IMG/VR virus record: IMGVR_UViG_3300021400_001148
Location: 192,001-256,000 of that record
DNA from: a virus
Lineage: Duplodnaviria > Caudoviricetes
Reading direction: 5' to 3' (one strand)
Length of the DNA stretch: 64,000 nucleotides
Program-made: the position numbers and the translations under genes
The notes under the pieces: generated by a model
Told to the model about the DNA's origin: nothing
Database searches by the model: none
What the model saw: only the letters and a program-made list of their open reading frames with translations
Shown: positions 3,866 through 15,309 of the stretch, one piece after another
Position numbering within the stretch: position 1 is the first letter of the stretch
How the letters are laid out: the number at the start of each line of letters is the position of its first letter

Positions 3866-5575
3866 TTAAATATCTTGCTTCTTTAATGTCCAGATATATT
3901 TTCTTGTTCCGCAGTCATACACCCGGTACCACCCTTTAGATTCACAAAATTCTTTTTCTGTCATCTCTGACGGGCATCCATATTTCCTAATGAGCACATC
4001 TTTTCTCATATTAAATCGATTAACCCTGCGTTTATTGATTACATAAAAATAACTTGGGGGTGTGTTCTCCTCAAACTCAAACCCTATTTTTTCATACAAG
4101 TTTCCATTGGACCATCTCCTGTCAGCAAAAGACTTAACTTTTTCCGGAGAATATGTTTCTACGAAATACTTAAACATTCTGCTTGCACCCCCGACTACGG
4201 TTGTGCCCAGCATGTTAGCAAACCTCACTAATTCATATTCTTTATCATTCCGAGGCTTACCGTTAAGATTAATCCTGTTTCGACAAAATGCCATAACACT
4301 CACCAGTTCATCTTCATAAAACAAGCCTATTCTCACATTCGTTTGTGTTTTACCTTGTATGTGGTTCCTGTCTAAAAACCGAGTGGCCGTTTTCGAGTCT
4401 ACTTCCGCAATACGACAATTTCTTGCATATATCTTTTTCTCAGTAAAGCCGAGGATGTTCCTAATCCTACTTTTACAAATGCTGTTCTTGAGCATCCACT
4501 CATCATCAAAGATTTGTATCAGGCGAATGCCCTTCTTTTCGCATTCTTCAGTTTTCAACAAGTGGTACTTCTTTTCAGTATTAAACTTTTCAGAGTGCCA
4601 GATTAGCCCATTCATCTCAAAACCAATGTTCAGGCCGGGGATAAAAATATCAATCTCCTTCGGGGGGATTACATCTCTGACATTTTCAAGAACCTCCGTA
4701 CTAGGTAGAAGTGACTTGATATACTCCAATAATTCTTTCTCAACCGTTGACTTGTCTTTAAAACATTTTGGACAGCCCTGCCCAAAAAGGTGGTTCCCCG
4801 CTATCTGTTCAAATTCACCGTGTATTGGGCATATTATCTTTAGTGGCTGACGGCTGTTTTCGTAAACAGATTGAGTATAATCATATTTGTCACCGTGAAC
4901 TTCCCTTGCTCTTTGCACCCATTCTTCTGTCGTCATCAATCTTTCACTACCACACTTTATCCTTCCACATACGGGACACCCTTGTTTTCCTTTGATGTGG
5001 TTGTTCATTGTTTGATAAAACACTCCATGCTCAGGGCAAATAATTGGATATTTAATACGGTCATTCTTGTACTCCGTGAGCATTGAATAATCGTATTTGT
5101 CCCCGTGGACTTTTTTTGCTTCCTCTATTACGGATTGAATACTCCTGCGATTCTTGGACGATGACTTTATGTATCTACACTTTGGGCATCCCTCCCCGGA
5201 CAGCAAGTGCCCCGGGGTTATTTCAAACTGACCATGTTCACAGCCGTTTTCGTCTTTCTCGTGACAAGTAACTGTTATTTTGGTTTTATTATTTACATAG
5301 ACCGTATTTTCGAATGTATATGTGCTGCAATGAGGTAGTTTGCTTACTTTATCAACAAACTCCTCGGTTGTGTACTGGTATCTTCCACTGCACTTTTTGC
5401 AACCATCGCCACGATATATGTGATGATAAAAATCTTTGTAAAAGACACCATGCTCTGGGCAAATGATGGGGCATTTAGTTCTATTATTTACATATTCTTT
5501 TATAAGAGAATAGTCATATTTGAAGTTATGCACCTCGTTTGCCAATCTGATACATTCGGATAGTGTATTTTTCAT
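3866..5575 (-). CDS. Hef-like homing endonuclease between the polB halves
   Basis: Four CPxHG-type zinc repeats; EIDIFIP…GFEMNGLIWHSE; NHIQG, SFADRRWS, VYDCG. Confidence 0.8.
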   Translation of the reverse strand: MKNTLSECIRLANEVHNFKYDYSLIKEYVNNRTKCPIICPEHGVFYKDFYHHIYRGDGCKKCSGRYQYTTEEFVDKVSKLPHCSTYTFENTVYVNNKTKITVTCHEKDENGCEHGQFEITPGHLLSGEGCPKCRYIKSSSKNRRSIQSVIEEAKKVHGDKYDYSMLTEYKNDRIKYPIICPEHGVFYQTMNNHIKGKQGCPVCGRIKCGSERLMTTEEWVQRAREVHGDKYDYTQSVYENSRQPLKIICPIHGEFEQIAGNHLFGQGCPKCFKDKSTVEKELLEYIKSLLPSTEVLENVRDVIPPKEIDIFIPGLNIGFEMNGLIWHSEKFNTEKKYHLLKTEECEKKGIRLIQIFDDEWMLKNSICKSRIRNILGFTEKKIYARNCRIAEVDSKTATRFLDRNHIQGKTQTNVRIGLFYEDELVSVMAFCRNRINLNGKPRNDKEYELVRFANMLGTTVVGGASRMFKYFVETYSPEKVKSFADRRWSNGNLYEKIGFEFEENTPPSYFYVINKRRVNRFNMRKDVLIRKYGCPSEMTEKEFCESKGWYRVYDCGTRKYIWTLKKQDI

Positions 5576-5623
5576 TTTTTTCTTATAAATATCTTGTTGC
5601 GGACAAAAGTACCAAAAAACGAT

Positions 5624-8110
5624 TTATTTTATGCCAGAATAAGTGCTCACTTCAGATATCATTTTTAAAAAATACAACCCAGCAAGGCAAGTTTTACTAT
5701 ACTGAATGTCATCGCGGTAATTTTTTATGAACACCTCGTAAAATTCTCGCCCTTCTTTTGTTGGCCTATTAAGAAACCATGATGGAACTCTGTCTATTTT
5801 ACCATTCGCAAGTGCTTTGGCGTAAAAATGAGGATTTCTTGTATCCGCCGGAAGCCATTTTGCTTTTTTAAAAACCTCGTAATCGTTAAAATATTCAAGA
5901 TGAGTTTCATTATTAACTTCTGATGGCTTAATTTTTTCCTTTTTATCATTAAAAAGGCTGTGGTCTTCAGTGACTTCTATCTTCATATCACCATCTGTGA
6001 TTTCATAAATGTCCTTATCAGTTTTATGGCGGTAAATGTATGATGGGGTTACCCATCCACTTCGACAAAGGACTTGGTACGGTTTTGGCGAATAATCGTA
6101 TTCACGGCCAAGCGCATCAGTTTCAATTTTATTCTCATCTATAAGTTCGCATATAGGTTTAATATCAATTGCTCCATTCTTTACATTGCGAACAAATACA
6201 GGAGTGTCTTCAGTGAACGAGTCGCCAACGATAGGCTTATAGCCAAGTCCCATAAAATGGCTTATCATTAAGCGAAGGCTTTGTCGGCCAGTACAGGTGA
6301 TTCTCTCAGCACAGTTTTTGTCGCCAAGAGGGAAAAGGTTTTCTGCGCCAAAACTACCAAACGCTGAGTTTCCAAGGATTTTCAGAGGGTTCTGTAATCG
6401 GTCATTCTTCATCTCCTCATTTTCCCAGTGCTGGATTTCGGAGAGTAAAGATTTATCTTGTGTCTCTTTATACTCTTTTCGTTTGGCCTCGGCGTTTTTG
6501 GCACCTATTTTCTTTAGTTTCTTATATGTCTCTCGCTGTGTGAGAACATAGTTCAGCATGGCCGGGAGAACACCCTGAATATCAATTTTCGGGTCAATGT
6601 GCCAAGTAAGCATAATGGAGGGGTACAGAGAGTTGTAGTCAAGTTTGATGACTTTCTTAATGAACCCCGTGCGGCAAAGACGGGACAAACCCCCGGTAAA
6701 TGCACCACCCTTTCCGAAAGCCGGAACAGCAAGGCCCTGCTCATAGGACCACGCAAGAATAATAAGTTTCCAAATGCCGGCGGTACCCATTGTACAGGCC
6801 CTTGCAAAACCAGTGGGAACAATTTTATTAATAAGGAAATTGGCTTGATTAAGTTGGAGTTCCACCTTGTCAGTTTCCCAAATATCATCAAGGAGGTACC
6901 GGTCAACGATGTAGGCACCTGTCTTTAACACATATCCCTCTTTAAGGGGATGTTTTTCATCAACAAGATACCAATCCCCGTTTTCATCGTTAAAGGCAAA
7001 TGCGTCGCCCTCTGTCCTGAGAGTCGTAGTAATCTTGTCTCCGGGGATGTATACACGGTTCGGCTTGTTCAGTGAAAGATACTTGGTAACATACTTCAAG
7101 TCTGCTTTAAGCATACTACTATCACCGGCCTGTGCACGGCGGGCGGCGTGCAGACTATCGAGAACGATGTGCCCCGGGACGATTGTCTGATAATATGTTT
7201 CAACCTCACCGCCGAGTTTAAGTGTTGTCGGCTTCGGGTTCTTGTAAATAGGGCCGCCGAAAAGTTCTTTGGTAAACGCTTCGAAATCGCCACCAAGAAT
7301 CTTATATCTTGCAATGACATGGTTCCAGTCGAAGTTCTCACTGTTGTGACCGGCAATGGTATCCGGGTCCTTTGTGTATATGATTCTGAGAAAATCTTCA
7401 ATGCATTTTTTCTCGCTTGCGTCCAGTTCCTCTTTGGTATTTCCCTTGACAGTAAGAATCTTCTCGAAGCCCTTGTTAACCCTAATACCGATTTTAGTGA
7501 TGCGGTGCTTGTCCTCGAGGCCCTCGGACTCAATATCCCAAAGAAGTCTGTGGATATCGTCATAAGTTTCATAACCCTGAAACAGTCTCGTGCCAGTAGC
7601 AATCATATACTGTTCCTGTGGGGAGACAGAAAGGAAAGGCCTGTCGTCACCCATGAACTGTTTATTGTCAGGGTCATCGTTATTGCCGCGGTCAGAAAAC
7701 ACCGGAGTCCCCGCATCTTTGAAAAACTTCAGAAATGTGGAGTATGACATTGGATGTGTGGCTCTGAAAATGAACTTGTAGCCATTGACCATTCGTTCCT
7801 CTTCAGTGCCATCATAGCCTTTTGTACGAAGTTTCTTTACCTCAATTCCGTATTTGTTGAGGAGTTGCTTAACCAGATGACGGTCACCGCCGCACATCTT
7901 GTCACAGATAGAATATTTTGCCCATACGAACGGATAGAAGTCGTCGTATTTTATGGCTTTTTCGTCTTTTTCTGTTCTGTATGTGATTTTGGCCTGTGTA
8001 TCTCCGTATGTAATATCAACTGAGATTGCCCGTTTGAAGGGGTTGCGGCCGTTCAAGAATTTCTCAATTTCCTCAAAGGAAATGTTTGGCTTTTGCTCTA
8101 TTTCTGCCAT
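5624..8110 (-). CDS. polB: Family B DNA polymerase, N-terminal half (exonuclease and palm) with C-terminal split-intein N fragment
   Basis: Exo I WDIESE, Exo II GHNSENFDW, motif A LDYNSLYPSI, motif B KILGNSAFG, then IVGD|SFTEDTP. Confidence 0.92.
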   Translation of the reverse strand: MAEIEQKPNISFEEIEKFLNGRNPFKRAISVDITYGDTQAKITYRTEKDEKAIKYDDFYPFVWAKYSICDKMCGGDRHLVKQLLNKYGIEVKKLRTKGYDGTEEERMVNGYKFIFRATHPMSYSTFLKFFKDAGTPVFSDRGNNDDPDNKQFMGDDRPFLSVSPQEQYMIATGTRLFQGYETYDDIHRLLWDIESEGLEDKHRITKIGIRVNKGFEKILTVKGNTKEELDASEKKCIEDFLRIIYTKDPDTIAGHNSENFDWNHVIARYKILGGDFEAFTKELFGGPIYKNPKPTTLKLGGEVETYYQTIVPGHIVLDSLHAARRAQAGDSSMLKADLKYVTKYLSLNKPNRVYIPGDKITTTLRTEGDAFAFNDENGDWYLVDEKHPLKEGYVLKTGAYIVDRYLLDDIWETDKVELQLNQANFLINKIVPTGFARACTMGTAGIWKLIILAWSYEQGLAVPAFGKGGAFTGGLSRLCRTGFIKKVIKLDYNSLYPSIMLTWHIDPKIDIQGVLPAMLNYVLTQRETYKKLKKIGAKNAEAKRKEYKETQDKSLLSEIQHWENEEMKNDRLQNPLKILGNSAFGSFGAENLFPLGDKNCAERITCTGRQSLRLMISHFMGLGYKPIVGDSFTEDTPVFVRNVKNGAIDIKPICELIDENKIETDALGREYDYSPKPYQVLCRSGWVTPSYIYRHKTDKDIYEITDGDMKIEVTEDHSLFNDKKEKIKPSEVNNETHLEYFNDYEVFKKAKWLPADTRNPHFYAKALANGKIDRVPSWFLNRPTKEGREFYEVFIKNYRDDIQYSKTCLAGLYFLKMISEVSTYSGIK
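5627..6220 (-). other. Split intein N-fragment (198 aa, Ser1)
   Basis: Block A SFTEDTPVFV directly after VGD; block B IEVTEDHSLF. Confidence 0.88.
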
Positions 8111-8177
8111 TTCTTTCAAAAAATTATATTTATAGTTATAGGATTAGAGCACACACTTGTGCATCATCTTTTCGTGA

Positions 8178-10487: not shown

Positions 10488-10514
10488 AACGCCAGAACAT
10501 TTTTTGTTCTGGCG
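10488..10514 (-). terminator. Terminator after the tmRNA gene
   Basis: CGCCAGAACA…TGTTCTGGCG hairpin with T-tract on the minus strand. Confidence 0.7.
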
Positions 10515-10521
10515 CAACAAG

Positions 10522-11111
10522 TGGAGCTGACGGGACTCGCTGAGTATTACTCTGGGCCATCTCATCATCTGTTCTAGATGCTGCTCGCTATAGGCTCACC
10601 GTAGTGTCCTTGGTCTCTGAACCTTCCACAATCTTCCTTGTGGCTTGGCTGCTGATTGCCTCTTCGGTTTCCAGCAATTCAAGCAGTTTTTAACATAATG
10701 TCCCCATTATGTGGGTCCGATATGCTGAACCCGTGTCCAAACATCTCATCCAATCGCTTTCTACACATTTATCCCAATGTTGTTTTTCGTAATCCCCCGG
10801 GAGATGGGCTTCCAAAGAGATTCTTAACCCGGTTCTACTTAGGCGGGATTTACGGATGTTACCCGCTTGCATCTGATTGTAATTGCACCCCTTAGCCACA
10901 ACCATACAGAAAACTGTGAGGGATGTACGCCGAGCGGAACCTTGTTCTGCTCTGTCGCAGCCCGGAATCACCTAGTGATTAGGCAGCATAAGCGTAAGAG
11001 TAAGCGTAACGATTAGCAGTTACTTTTTTGGTGTTCTGGATTAACGGGACCACCACCTTCGCCCGATGTGCTTACGATGAAACGACAATGCTGTCAAAAC
11101 CAAACAGCCCC
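10522..11111 (-). ncRNA. ssrA: tmRNA, intron-containing (about 402 nt mature); tag ANRYAYSYAYAA at 11017-10979
   Basis: 5' GGGGCTG…TTTTGAC pairs with 3' CAGCTCCA (G3:U70); T-arm ACGGGTT|CGAGTCCCGT; TAACT-GCT resume context; tag ends AA then stop. Confidence 0.93.
10540..10727 (-). mobile_element. Group I self-splicing intron (188 nt, no ORF) in the tmRNA T-loop
   Basis: P1 GGGTT/GACCC with U:G pair at the splice site; P GAATTGCTGGAAA, Q AATCAGCAG, R TCAGAGACCA, S GAGATGGCCC; P3 CTGCTT/GAGCAG; terminal G. Confidence 0.9.
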
Positions 11112-11118
11112 ATTATAA

Positions 11119-11337
11119 CTATTTCAGTCTTTGAGAAATCCTCCCTCTAGTGAGGTCGTAAGGGGACATCTCAACTTTAACTTTATCGCCCTCAATTACT
11201 CGAATATTATTCATCCGCATTTTTCCAGAAAGGGTACACAGGATTTCAAGGCCGTTCTCCAGTTCAACCCTGAACATTGCATTGGGGAGTGATTCAATCA
11301 CACTCCCCTGCGTTATAATAGCCTGTTGTTTACTCAT
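11119..11337 (-). CDS. infA: Translation initiation factor IF-1
   Basis: 72 aa: [15 protein letters not shown]…[31 protein letters not shown]. Confidence 0.95.
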
Positions 11338-12466
11338 CGATGAAACCAATGATTTTCTTGTTAGTCTCAGTCTCGTAAGAGTCCTCCTCATAGTTGTAAA
11401 TATCTGCAAGTGAAAGTGCTTTATCCACAACTGTCTTCTCACCACGAATCTTCGTAAGAAGCGCGGAGGACTTATCCGCAGAAAGTTTAGTGAACTCGTA
11501 CTTGGATATCAGTCGCCCTTTCCTGAGAAGTGCATCATCAATCTGGTCAACCTCAGCATTGAATGTACAGATGAACTTCACACCAAGAGACTTGAGGAGT
11601 CCGTCGGCAAGGTTAAGAAGAAGGTTCACTGGTGAGTTGCTGTTGAAATCATTTCTCGACTTGAGGGCATCCTCACAGTCTTCAAGAATAAGGATGCTGT
11701 CCTTGAACCTTGCAAGGAAAGAAGTGAACGAAGGCTGGCCAAGAAGCGGAACCAACGACGACGGAAAATAAATGAACTGTTTATCAGGGTGTGTCTTCAC
11801 AAGATTAGAGATGTAAGTACTCTTACCAGTTCCCTTCTCGCCGTGAAGGATAATGATGCCACTCTTCTTTTTTGCGGAAATAAATTCCTCGATTTTTTCA
11901 GCCTCTCTCTTGAAGTTGTCATTGTACTGTTCATCTATATTGAAATCCTCAACAGTATCAATTTCAAAATCAATGAGGTCAAAACCTGTCTGAGTTGAAA
12001 TAATGAGTTTCACATTGTTGAGTTTCTGTTTCGGGAGAACATAATATTTCTTCACAATCTCCTCAATCTCTTCAAGAGCCTCTTCATCGCCGTCTCCATA
12101 AAGAATGTAAGATTCACTCACACTGTCCTCGAAGCGGGCGAATATGTTCTTATCCTCGATGATGATTGAGAAACCGAGTTTAATCTCCCCGTCGGTGAGG
12201 TTGCAGTTGCGGTAGACAACCGTGTAGTATTTACTGTCCTTATAATGTTCTTTCAACGCTTTAAGGAGACCGGTCGTGTCAAAGTGAGAATCCGCATCTT
12301 CCCTCAACTGTGTAAACATATCACAATATGGGAAATATCTGTTCTTGCAGAAAAACAAGTTCTGAAGTGAAAGACCATCCACCTTTGAATAGACATCGTC
12401 AAACTTAGCATCAAGGCTCATATTATGAAGGATTGCCTTGGCTGCGATTTCTTCGTTTTTTACCAT
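11330..12466 (-). CDS. AAA+ ATPase (BCS1-like)
   Basis: [33 protein letters not shown]-terminal IGF. Confidence 0.85.
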
Positions 12467-12496
12467 AAATTTTTTTGACTAAAATAAACTTCGTTG

Positions 12497-12504
12497 CAAA
12501 TATA
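12497..12504 (-). promoter_or_regulatory. Bacteroidota-type -7 promoter of the AAA-infA-ssrA unit
   Basis: TATATTTG(CA) upstream of 12466. Confidence 0.7.
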
Positions 12505-12531
12505 CAATTTTTTTCTCAAACAAAAACAATA

Positions 12532-12765
12532 CTAAACTTTTCCCATTTGGTATATGTTGAAAATTTCCGAGTAGGTGATAAAGTCATTCATATCTTCAAA
12601 ATCGTTGTCCCCTTCATAGAAAGCATTCCTGTCATTCATCACGGTTGAACCGAGGAATGGCTTAACGAAATATTCCGGTTCTTCTTTGTCTTCTTCTTCC
12701 CGGGGCAGTACTTCCATAAAGTATATTGTATCGGGATACATTTTTTTACCAAAGTACTTTTTCAT
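12532..12765 (-). CDS. Hypothetical protein
   Basis: ORF directly downstream of clpC on the same strand. Confidence 0.6.
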   Translation of the reverse strand: MKKYFGKKMYPDTIYFMEVLPREEEDKEEPEYFVKPFLGSTVMNDRNAFYEGDNDFEDMNDFITYSEIFNIYQMGKV

Positions 12766-12777
12766 ATTATACAGGCT

Positions 12778-15309
12778 TTATTGTATAATTAGGTTGCCGT
12801 TTTCAGTTGTAAGGTTTATTTCAATGTTTTTATCACTGCTCTCAAGGATAATATCCGTAACCGGGTTTACTATATCTTCTTGTATTACTCGTATGATAGG
12901 CCTTGCTCCGAATTCTTTTTCAGGCTCAATCCTCTTAAGGAAATATTCCACCACACCATTGTCGTAAGACAAGCCATAGCCGGCATCGGATATTTTCTTT
13001 TTCGTCTTTTCAAGTTCAATCCGGATAATGCTCCTGAGATTGTCTTCTGTCAGAGAATTGAAGTAAATGATTTCATCAATCCTGTTCAGGAACTCCGGGG
13101 TGAACTTACTTTTCAGTTCCCTATCGAGGATGGCCTTGGTTTTTTCTTGAATGTCGTCATCGATAAAGCCGAAACTTTTGCTGTTTTCCTGAGCTTCTCT
13201 CGCACCTACATTAGAAGTGAAGATAAGAATAAGGTTCTTACAGTCAATTTTCTTGCCGAAATTGTCTGTCACCCGCCCTTCGTCCATAATCTGGAGGAAT
13301 ATGTTGTAAATTTCCGGGTCAGCCTTTTCAATCTCATCGCAAAGGAGAACGGCATATTTGTTTTTCTTGATTGCCTCAGTAAGGAGACCGCCGTTCTCAT
13401 AGCCAACATAACCCGCACCGGCACCGATAAGTTTATTGACAGCGGTTTTATCCGCGTACTCCGACATATCGAACCTGATAAGGTATTTTTCATCGCCGAA
13501 CACCTCTTTTGCTATTGTTTTTGCGAGAAGAGTTTTACCAATACCAGTCTTACCAAGTTCAAGAAATGTAACCGGCTTGTTGGGAGTTCCGAGGCCTACG
13601 CGGTTTCTTTTTATTGCCCGGCATATAGAGTCCACCGCCTCGTCTTGGCCCACAACTATTTTCTTAATCTTTTCATTGATGTTTGTAAGGCTCTTTTTCT
13701 CATCACTTGAAAGTTTGCTGACTGGTATTCCGGTTTTTTCGGAAATTATATGATGAACATCGTCCAGTGTAATTTCTTTCGTATTTTGTGATTGATGGTA
13801 TTTTTCCTTTGCATCGAGCAATTCTGATGTATAGTCGTTAATTTCTTTGTTAATCTCTCTCAGTCTCTCCAAATCATCGTCCTCAATGGCGGACTGTTTT
13901 TCTGCCTCAAGTGCCTTAATCATAGCGGTGAGGTCGCCGATTATTTTTGGTTCAATCATACCCACTCTGATTGATGACCCGACTTCGTCAAGTATGTCAA
14001 TGGCAGAATCCGGGAGCAGACGCTCACTGATGTATTTATCTGAAAGTTTTACAATTTCTTCCACAACATCGGCAGGATATTTCACATTGTGATACTTCTC
14101 GTAGTAGTCTTTTGTCGAGGAAATTATCTCAATGGTCTCCTCGATTGTGGCCGGGGAAATATTGAGTTTCTGGAACTTGCGGTCGAAACTGTTGTTTGTT
14201 TCAATGGCCGAGTGGTAATTTTTGTATGTCGTAGTTCCGATTATCTGGATTTCATTCTCACTTAATGCTTGGTTGAAAACTGCAGACATATCAACATCGG
14301 ATTTTCCGGAAGACATAATCATATTGATGTCATCTATGAAAAGGATGTTGTTTTTGTTTTTCTTGAACTCCTTGATTAGTTTCTTCAGTCTCTCTTCCAG
14401 CATACCCCTCATCGATGTTCCCGCAATGAGTGCGGTTACATCCAGCGAGTAAAAGTGCTTTGACTGTATTGACTCCGGGGCATTTCCGTTGACAATTTCT
14501 TGCACAAGGCCTTTGATAATGGCTGTCTTGCCCACACCTCCATCACCAAGAATAAGGACATTGTTCTTATTTCTTCTCCCCAGAACACGATAAATCTGTG
14601 CAAGTTCACTTTTTCGTCCGATTAGACGGTCATATTTCCCCTCTTCAGCCTCACGGTTCATGTCCGCGCAGTATGCCAATATAAGGGAACCTCCCTGCCG
14701 GCTCGTTTCCTTTGGGGGCTCCATTGGAAAAAGTATCTGTTTCATTTCACTCGGGTCGAAGTGTATTGGAATCTGTATCGGCCCGGAGTCAAGCATCATT
14801 GTGCTCTGCAGAGGTGCCCCGATGGTGGAAGAATCGCTGTTTTGCGGGAGGTTAATCTGACTTTTTGCAAGAAACTCCTTATACCCCATTCCAATGGTGC
14901 TGGAAAACACATACTCAATGTTTTTGTCATTTTTGAGGATTGACAGGAAAAGCAGTGTGGATGTGATTGATTCTTCTCCAAGGGTTTTCCTTATTTTTTC
15001 CGCATCGTCGAGAACTACCGAAAAGTCCTTGCTGAGTTTGAATGAGGCGTTTGGGCGTAGCGACAGCATCTCCTTGAGGGAGATTTCCCGGATGAAGTAA
15101 TTCTCAATTGATGACAATGATGTTGAACTTGCGGTATTTTTAAGGATTGAGAAGGCTTTACAGTTGCGAGAGTTCAACATAGCCACAATAAAATATGGCG
15201 TTGTAATAGCAACCGAAGGGTGCTCCTCCAATATGACTGTCGTTATGAATTCAAAAACAGATTTTAACTCGGCCGAACAGTTCTTGTCTTTAAGTTGTTC
15301 TATCTCCAC
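12778..15309 (-). CDS. clpC: ATP-dependent Clp protease ATPase subunit (ClpC-type)
   Basis: Two AAA modules (GDGGVGKT; GKTGIGKT, DMSEY, GYVGY, DEIEKA), UVR-like middle domain, FGF ClpP-docking loop; TATATTTG at 15349-15356. Confidence 0.9.
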   Translation of the reverse strand: MEIEQLKDKNCSAELKSVFEFITTVILEEHPSVAITTPYFIVAMLNSRNCKAFSILKNTASSTSLSSIENYFIREISLKEMLSLRPNASFKLSKDFSVVLDDAEKIRKTLGEESITSTLLFLSILKNDKNIEYVFSSTIGMGYKEFLAKSQINLPQNSDSSTIGAPLQSTMMLDSGPIQIPIHFDPSEMKQILFPMEPPKETSRQGGSLILAYCADMNREAEEGKYDRLIGRKSELAQIYRVLGRRNKNNVLILGDGGVGKTAIIKGLVQEIVNGNAPESIQSKHFYSLDVTALIAGTSMRGMLEERLKKLIKEFKKNKNNILFIDDINMIMSSGKSDVDMSAVFNQALSENEIQIIGTTTYKNYHSAIETNNSFDRKFQKLNISPATIEETIEIISSTKDYYEKYHNVKYPADVVEEIVKLSDKYISERLLPDSAIDILDEVGSSIRVGMIEPKIIGDLTAMIKALEAEKQSAIEDDDLERLREINKEINDYTSELLDAKEKYHQSQNTKEITLDDVHHIISEKTGIPVSKLSSDEKKSLTNINEKIKKIVVGQDEAVDSICRAIKRNRVGLGTPNKPVTFLELGKTGIGKTLLAKTIAKEVFGDEKYLIRFDMSEYADKTAVNKLIGAGAGYVGYENGGLLTEAIKKNKYAVLLCDEIEKADPEIYNIFLQIMDEGRVTDNFGKKIDCKNLILIFTSNVGAREAQENSKSFGFIDDDIQEKTKAILDRELKSKFTPEFLNRIDEIIYFNSLTEDNLRSIIRIELEKTKKKISDAGYGLSYDNGVVEYFLKRIEPEKEFGARPIIRVIQEDIVNPVTDIILESSDKNIEINLTTENGNLIIQ

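Follow-up and report, generated by a model that had tools for sequence, protein, structure and literature searches.

A predicted miniature group I intron splits the sole tmRNA gene of a 355-kb phage

A tmRNA gene that is interrupted within its T-loop raises the question of what the interrupting sequence is, and of whether a functional tmRNA could still be made from the gene. Such a gene was analysed here in a window of 64,000 nt, which comprises bases 192001-256000 of a virus record of 354,809 bp that carries direct terminal repeats and is rated complete, in agreement with the phage source that the original prediction had proposed. No second tmRNA gene was found in the whole 355-kb phage genome, the split copy being the sole one. 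Our preferred reading, to which we assign a probability of roughly 0.8, is that an IA-like group I intron splits this tmRNA and is spliced out, and that it represents a reduced, vertically inherited member of the subsite-3 family of introns of Bacteroidia.

The tmRNA gene lies on the minus strand from 11111 to 10522 and measures about 590 bp with the intron included. ARAGORN called no tRNA or tmRNA on the raw, unspliced window. The Rfam tmRNA model (RF00023) matched 11111-10723 (minus strand) with 77.9 bits against a gathering score of 47, and once the 188 nt from 10727 to 10540 had been deleted by script ARAGORN called a tmRNA of 403 nt, with tRNA-like domains at spliced positions 1-27 and 365-403 that were recognised only after intron removal. 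Thus both the presence of a tmRNA gene and the restoration of its T-arm by exactly this removal, as originally proposed, were confirmed. Exon 1 (384 nt, 10728-11111, minus strand), assigned from RF00023 and from ARAGORN on the spliced sequence, contains the 5' strand of the acceptor stem (GGGGCUG), the mRNA-like region, the pseudoknots and the 5' half of the T-arm, ending in GGGUU. Exon 2 (10522-10539, minus strand), assigned from the sequence and ARAGORN, starts with CGAGUCCC at 10539 and supplies T-loop residues CGAGU, the 3' strand of the T-stem (CCCGU), the 3' strand of the acceptor stem (CAGCUCC) and the discriminator A at 10522. The spliced T-arm is the standard ACGGG-UUCGAGU-CCCGU, the acceptor stem GGGGCUG/CAGCUCC has a G3:U wobble, and CCA is not encoded at the 3' end of the tmRNA, where CUU is found instead.

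The tag frame was placed by ARAGORN at 10979-11017 (minus strand; tmRNA positions 95-133), running from the resume codon GCU to UAA and encoding ANRYAYSYAYAA, an atypical, Tyr-rich tag that yet ends in AA. The aligned frame of an orthologous tmRNA (L323:302-711) encodes a different, longer tag with Asp first and the end ...YAYAYATC, and both tags are Tyr/Ala-rich. The spliced L323 gene was not called by ARAGORN. No tRNA genes were called by ARAGORN across the 64-kb window, and tRNAs are present elsewhere in the phage.

The insert itself (188 nt, 10540-10727, minus strand) was delimited by alignment to the Rfam group I model, by covariation in 17 homologues and by the minimum free energy (MFE) fold, and it enters the T-loop between nucleotides 2 and 3, that is, between UU and CGAGU. 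The Intron_gpI model (RF00028) aligned over its full length (model 1-253) to 10737-10540, with the 3' end of the match falling exactly on the proposed terminal G (10540), an E-value of 2.5e-11 and a score of 47.8 bits, which is 2.2 bits short of the gathering score of 50. Hence the covariance-model check named in the original prediction came out above the gathering score for the tmRNA and gave a divided answer for the intron, full length and significant by E-value but below the score cut-off.

The internal guide sequence was read as UCGGACCC (10713-10720, minus strand), and TCGGACCC is invariant in the family. P1 pairs GGGUU, and the C that follows the splice site, with GGACCC of the guide and places a U.G wobble at the splice site; this pair, formed by U10728, is invariant in 17 of 17 homologues. 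P10 joins UCG of the guide to CGA of exon 2. The P2 hairpin (10693-10712, minus strand) has 8 bp and a GGGA (GNRA) tetraloop, with 99.3% of cells paired and double changes in 6 of its 8 pairs. P3 (CUGCUUG/CGAGCAG) and P4 (UGCUGG/UCAGCA) were drawn by hand, as P6, P6a and P8 could also be, and alignment A1, described below, gave a minimal P5 of 2 bp with the pentaloop GAAGA (10659-10667, minus strand). Between P7 and the 3' strand of P3 stands a P7.1 hairpin with a C(UACG)G tetraloop (10592-10610, minus strand), a subgroup-IA-like feature that was found by alignment, by hand drawing and in the MFE fold. A vestigial P9 hairpin of 4 bp, GAGU-AAU-ACUC (10542-10552, minus strand; from drawing, family comparison and MFE fold), is followed by an A and then by the terminal G. 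An unconstrained ViennaRNA MFE fold (-59.3 kcal/mol, z = -3.28) gave P1, P2, P3, P4, P5, P6a, P7.1, P8 and P9. All of the elements originally drawn, P1 with its U:G pair, P10 (UCG/CGA), P2 to P9 and the terminal G, were thus found where predicted, and, as had also been stated, the intron contains no ORF of meaningful size. Two ORFs that overlap the RNA, 10690-10971 (minus strand) and 10656-10895 (plus strand), were set aside as spurious because both run through structured RNA of the exon as well as of the intron. Shifting the borders by one base, to after UUC and before GAG, also restores the T-loop; this reading was ruled out since it places a C at -1 and a C at the terminal position.

The drawn structure was scored on alignment A1, which consists of 17 short members of the family. 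In these, 89.5% of cells were paired as against 75.6% in shuffles, and the covariation score was 0.412 compared with 0.138 for shuffled alignments, a value reached in 0 of 500 shuffles, while sliding the 3' partners by 1-3 columns left only 27-42% of cells paired. P2, P3, P4, P5, P6a, P7 and P8 were 97-100% paired, and 34 pairs showed changes on both sides. The lower pairing of P1, P7.1 and P9 reflects alignment offsets and real structural differences between subgroups. The group I signal is therefore beyond chance, given the E-value of the model and the covarying homologues elsewhere, and the prediction of a group I intron in the T-loop is upheld by the full-length RF00028 match and the covariation. 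Judged from sequence, the insert reads as an authentic group I intron whose single P7.1 hairpin makes it resemble subgroup IA.

Relatives of the intron were sought by several routes. A synteny search through the downstream AAA_33-like protein gave no relatives in viral contigs, none of 80 viral loci examined through IF-1 had a tmRNA or similar intron beside IF-1, and an exact 17-mer of the P6-P7 core had no match in viral contigs. A 23-mer of the intron-less junction matched five viral loci, of which L005 and L008 were intron-less tmRNAs and the rest tRNAs; no similarity beyond the T-arm was detectable between these two tmRNAs and that of the window. Among GenBank phages only partial core matches were obtained, in crAss-like, Staphylococcus, Bacillus, Flavobacterium and cyano-phages, all of them to introns in protein-coding genes. 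A scan for a G followed by the 3' exon found two viral contigs in which a homologous intron splits a tmRNA at this very position, one of 224 nt (L103; 83.2 bits with RF00028) and one of 667 nt (L152; 86 bits), from which a family signature was built (TCGGACCC, gap, GTTAAAAA, gap, GAATTGC). Scanning with this signature gave 6 viral and 34 metagenome contigs with a family intron, and at all loci with two resolvable exons the intron splits the tmRNA T-loop between GGGUU and CGAnn. The resolved members measure 177 (L324), 182 (L323), 186 (L325), 188 (window), 221-233, 254 and 661-835 nt. Long forms carry an ORF after P9, which is of the LAGLIDADG type in L152, L298 and L299 and of the HNH_3 type in L309. 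On the metagenome contig L324 a second group I intron (1580-1801, 82.9 bits) lies about 1.3 kb downstream of the 177-nt tmRNA intron, and tRNA genes are present there too.

A scan of genome contigs with the 3'-exon pattern was unspecific, giving at least 120 matches that were mostly unrelated DNA. Among the matches listed was L193, a Hymenobacteraceae MAG contig (JANNMJ010000195.1, 2929-3556) whose tmRNA is split at this T-loop position by an intron of 260 nt, which scores 81.8 bits with RF00028. A terminator follows this tmRNA, which is taken to be chromosomal because its neighbours are purN, purH and a gene for a Cys/Met PLP-dependent enzyme. Its intron shares with the family the guide sequence, the P5 receptor block, the P6a loop, the P7 strands and the L9 GAAA loop. 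With a homologous intron in a Hymenobacteraceae chromosome, the intron family is thus common to Bacteroidota and phages.

Four members, L324, L323, L325 and the window copy, are mini forms of 177-188 nt. The P5 region of these measures 13-16 nt (14 in the window) as against 24-34 nt in the 221-254-nt forms, and the tail after P7 measures 6-15 nt as against 26-33 nt in the 221-233-nt forms. Most larger members have a P5 extension block, CUAAG...UAUG, and an L9 hairpin with a GAAA loop, both of which are absent from all four mini forms. As the block resembles the classic 11-nt receptor, it is by its motif a probable GAAA-tetraloop receptor, and both partners of the presumed L9-P5 clamp would then have been lost together in the mini forms, in which L2 stays a GNRA loop. 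Because most of the remaining members, the bacterial one included, have both receptor and L9, the mini state is most simply read as derived.

Two of the mini introns, those of L323 and L325 (182 and 186 nt), sit in syntenic fragments of related phages in which AAA, ClpB-like, IF-1 and PolB genes occur in the same order, with 63-71% amino-acid identity, and this argues for vertical inheritance. The pre-tmRNA of L323 is 89% identical to that of the window. Since the introns of these orthologues differ from that of the window by compensatory changes in P2, P3 and P6a, the intron appears to have been kept functional during vertical descent. No endonuclease gene was found in or beside the window intron. 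The original prediction had reasoned that mobility would need a nuclease supplied in trans, which is possible; the loss of a homing endonuclease from an intron that is now vertically inherited fits the evidence better, given the ORF-bearing relatives, the reduced forms lacking an ORF and the vertical inheritance, as expected of a cycle of endonuclease loss and fixation.

The main reservation about a functional reading of the window copy is a mismatch in P7. The strands of this helix, G[A]GACCA (10611-10617, minus strand) and UGGCCC (10554-10559, minus strand), contain both the G-binding pair, G10615:C10555, and the bulged A. As the original prediction had observed, A10614 stands opposite C10556, directly beside the G-binding pair. 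This mismatch occurs in the window copy alone among 28 unique family members, P7 being GACUA/UAGUC in 27 of the 28 and GACCA/UGGCC only in the window, and the pair at this position is A-U in 16 of 17 aligned members. The neighbouring P7 pair is changed on both sides, from U:A to C:G. As is known from work on the Tetrahymena and Azoarcus introns, the P7 layer beside the G-binding pair stacks on the bound guanosine; reduced activity is therefore plausible with A.C in this place, and the mismatch makes the splicing efficiency of the window intron uncertain.

It could accordingly be envisaged that the mismatch and the missing L9-P5 clamp together block efficient self-splicing, and that the tmRNA is a decaying pseudogene or one whose maturation depends on a protein or chaperone. 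The uniqueness of the mismatch at a position that is otherwise A-U would fit such a crippled copy, as would its being the only mini intron below the RF00028 cut-off, the other three passing it at 57-73 bits (72.8, 61.1 and 57.1). However, the double-sided change of the neighbouring pair suggests that the P7 helix is still under selection, every other helix is intact, the tmRNA exons are 89% identical to those of the L323 orthologue with the tag frame open, and, as a matter of general RNA chemistry, an A.C pair can form a protonated wobble and may do so here. We consider a crippled copy rather unlikely. An error of assembly or consensus, which would hide a canonical pair present in the actual phage, comes to mind for a metagenome-derived IMG/VR record in which a single base difference makes the mismatch, but three P7 positions differ from those of the relatives, and because two of the three form a compensatory pair the change looks like real divergence; such an error is very improbable.

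The score under the RF00028 gathering cut-off would also be compatible with an insert of another kind, such as a group II intron, a protein-spliced tRNA-type intron or an IS remnant, or with a permuted or two-piece tmRNA. Against these stand the full-length alignment to the group I model with exact U(-1) and terminal-G borders, the covarying core helices, the clear homologues, scoring 57-86 bits and hence above the cut-off, and the exons, which ARAGORN found collinear and not permuted. A non-group-I identity is effectively ruled out by the RF00028 alignment, the covariation and the scores of the homologues.

With a splicing group I intron as the preferred reading, a path from gene to functional tmRNA can be proposed. 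The gene for IF-1 (72 aa, 11119-11337, minus strand; Pfam eIF-1a, E 7.9e-25, and translation) ends with a stop codon 8 nt upstream of the tmRNA 5' end, and no sigma-70-like promoter was found between the two. On account of the short gap and the lack of such a promoter, the tmRNA is probably transcribed together with the upstream IF-1 gene, a likely arrangement that would be followed by 5' processing. An intrinsic-terminator-like hairpin with a T run (10489-10515, minus strand) lies a few nt past the tmRNA 3' end. In the transcript, the guide sequence would pair with GGGUU of the T-stem and T-loop to form P1, and exogenous guanosine would attack 3' of the U in the U.G wobble. The CGA of the 3' exon would then dock via P10, the terminal G (10540) would enter the G-site of P7, and ligation of the exons would rebuild the UUCGAGU T-loop and a tmRNA of about 402-403 nt. 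The spliced tmRNA would be trimmed, receive its CCA from a CCA-adding enzyme of the host, and be charged with alanine by virtue of the G3:U wobble. No PF01668 match to SmpB was found anywhere in the complete phage genome, so host SmpB would have to serve as its partner. As regards origin, the homing-endonuclease gene would have disappeared from the reduced sub-lineage of 177-188 nt, as would the receptor extension of P5 and the GAAA hairpin of L9, and this sub-lineage would have been passed on vertically in a clade of related phages.

Some further features of the genome were recorded. Adjacent to and co-oriented with the tmRNA (11119-15309, minus strand) are genes for a ClpB/ClpC-like double-AAA+ protein (843 aa), an AAA ATPase (378 aa) and IF-1, and the order of these three and the tmRNA is also kept in the related fragment L323. 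At 3866-8119 (minus strand) an 831-aa ORF has only weak, partial matches to family-B DNA polymerases, and the adjoining 569-aa ORF matches DUF723, treble-clef zinc-finger and Mom-like families. Outside the window, near the right end of the phage genome and adjoining a tRNA, a full-length match to the Rfam GOLLD RNA (RF02032) was found at G000:C1:353127-353534 (L333:128-535), with an E-value of 6.2e-22 and 86.1 bits, which is less than the gathering score of 150. A separate whole-genome search gave elsewhere only 13.1 and 10.6 bits.

How the window intron relates to known systems can be judged from published surveys and structures. In 2025, 883 unique intron-bearing tmRNA sequences were described, all split in the T-loop at one of four subsites for which independent founding events were proposed (PMC11915505). 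The original prediction was thus right that T-loop introns exist in tmRNA, and its description of them as rare needs updating. According to the same study, subsite 3 is confined to the class Bacteroidia with 9 instances, tmRNA introns have a mean length of 293 bp, and a minority of them carry LAGLIDADG genes, located behind P9 or within P7.1 (PMC11915505). As read from the figure legend of that paper, the window intron, lying after loop nucleotide 2, would correspond to its subsite 3, and it shares with the Bacteroidia introns the insertion point between GGGUU and CGA, the U at -1 and the terminal G. It belongs to the same family by sequence, through the 260-nt intron of Hymenobacteraceae, and some family members have LAGLIDADG after P9, as that paper reports. 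In contrast to the Bacteroidia introns, the window copy sits in a virus record and not in a Bacteroidia genome, and four phage or metagenome copies are cut down to 177-188 nt without the P5 extension and L9 hairpin. The 'previously known' main T-loop position is position 7, found mostly in Bacillota hosts (PMC11915505). The window intron occupies another subsite (3 and not 7), and is set apart from the position-7 introns by description. A position-7 intron was reportedly first seen in Clostridium botulinum.

The Azoarcus intron lies in an anticodon loop and makes two tetraloop-receptor contacts, as seen in crystal structures. Both it and the window intron are compact group I introns of bacterial type, housed in tRNA-like RNAs, with GNRA tetraloop contacts and a periphery kept to a minimum; the window intron differs in having a P7.1 hairpin and in appearing to keep only the L2 GNRA loop. 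With 188 nt it is also 17 nt shorter than the Azoarcus intron, whose splicing has been demonstrated and whose length is 205 nt (PMC13168695). The original description of the window intron as exceptionally small therefore holds against this model, but not within its own family, where relatives of 177, 182 and 186 nt exist, nor against published intron-form genes, of which the shortest totals 545 bp compared with about 590 bp here (PMC11915505). The literature searched for a stated record of the smallest group I intron yielded nothing usable. We suggest, tentatively and as the less probable outcome, that, among self-splicing group I introns found in nature, those of the window, L323, L324 and L325 could be the smallest, and that they may work with a 2-bp P5, little or no P9 and no L9-P5 clamp. 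If so, they would be minimal ribozyme scaffolds of natural origin, more compact than the Azoarcus intron, and phages would be maintaining intron-dependent maturation of tmRNA over long evolutionary times.

Small group I introns are also known from other phages, including the cyanophage S-PM2 psbA intron and those of crAss-like, Staphylococcus and Bacillus phages, and their P3-P7 cores are 70-85% identical to that of the window over 70-120 nt. These, however, interrupt protein-coding genes, whereas the window intron interrupts a tmRNA. The S-PM2 psbA gene is annotated in two joined pieces, its intron being about 210 nt as inferred from the CDS span, and the adjacent free-standing homing endonuclease F-CphI provides a precedent for a nuclease acting in trans; unlike in S-PM2, no free-standing endonuclease gene adjoins the window tmRNA. 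In the literature searched, the scope of which did not extend to subscription journals, no description of an intron-bearing phage tmRNA was found. Standard annotation tools overlook such genes, ARAGORN being blank here and the Rfam intron model just sub-threshold, and phage tmRNA counts are on that account probably underestimated. Because T-loop introns of tmRNA were already known, with subsite 3 described in 2025, the window intron falls into an existing, published class, to which it adds a new member that is phage-borne and miniaturised. The subsite-3 family thereby extends beyond Bacteroidia chromosomes to phage and metagenome contigs, where it is common, among them a complete 355-kb phage whose only tmRNA depends on predicted splicing. 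The members form a reduction series, from 660-835 nt with an endonuclease, through 221-254 nt without an ORF and with the clamp kept, to 177-188 nt with the clamp lost, and this series offers a comparative set for learning how little periphery a group I core needs.
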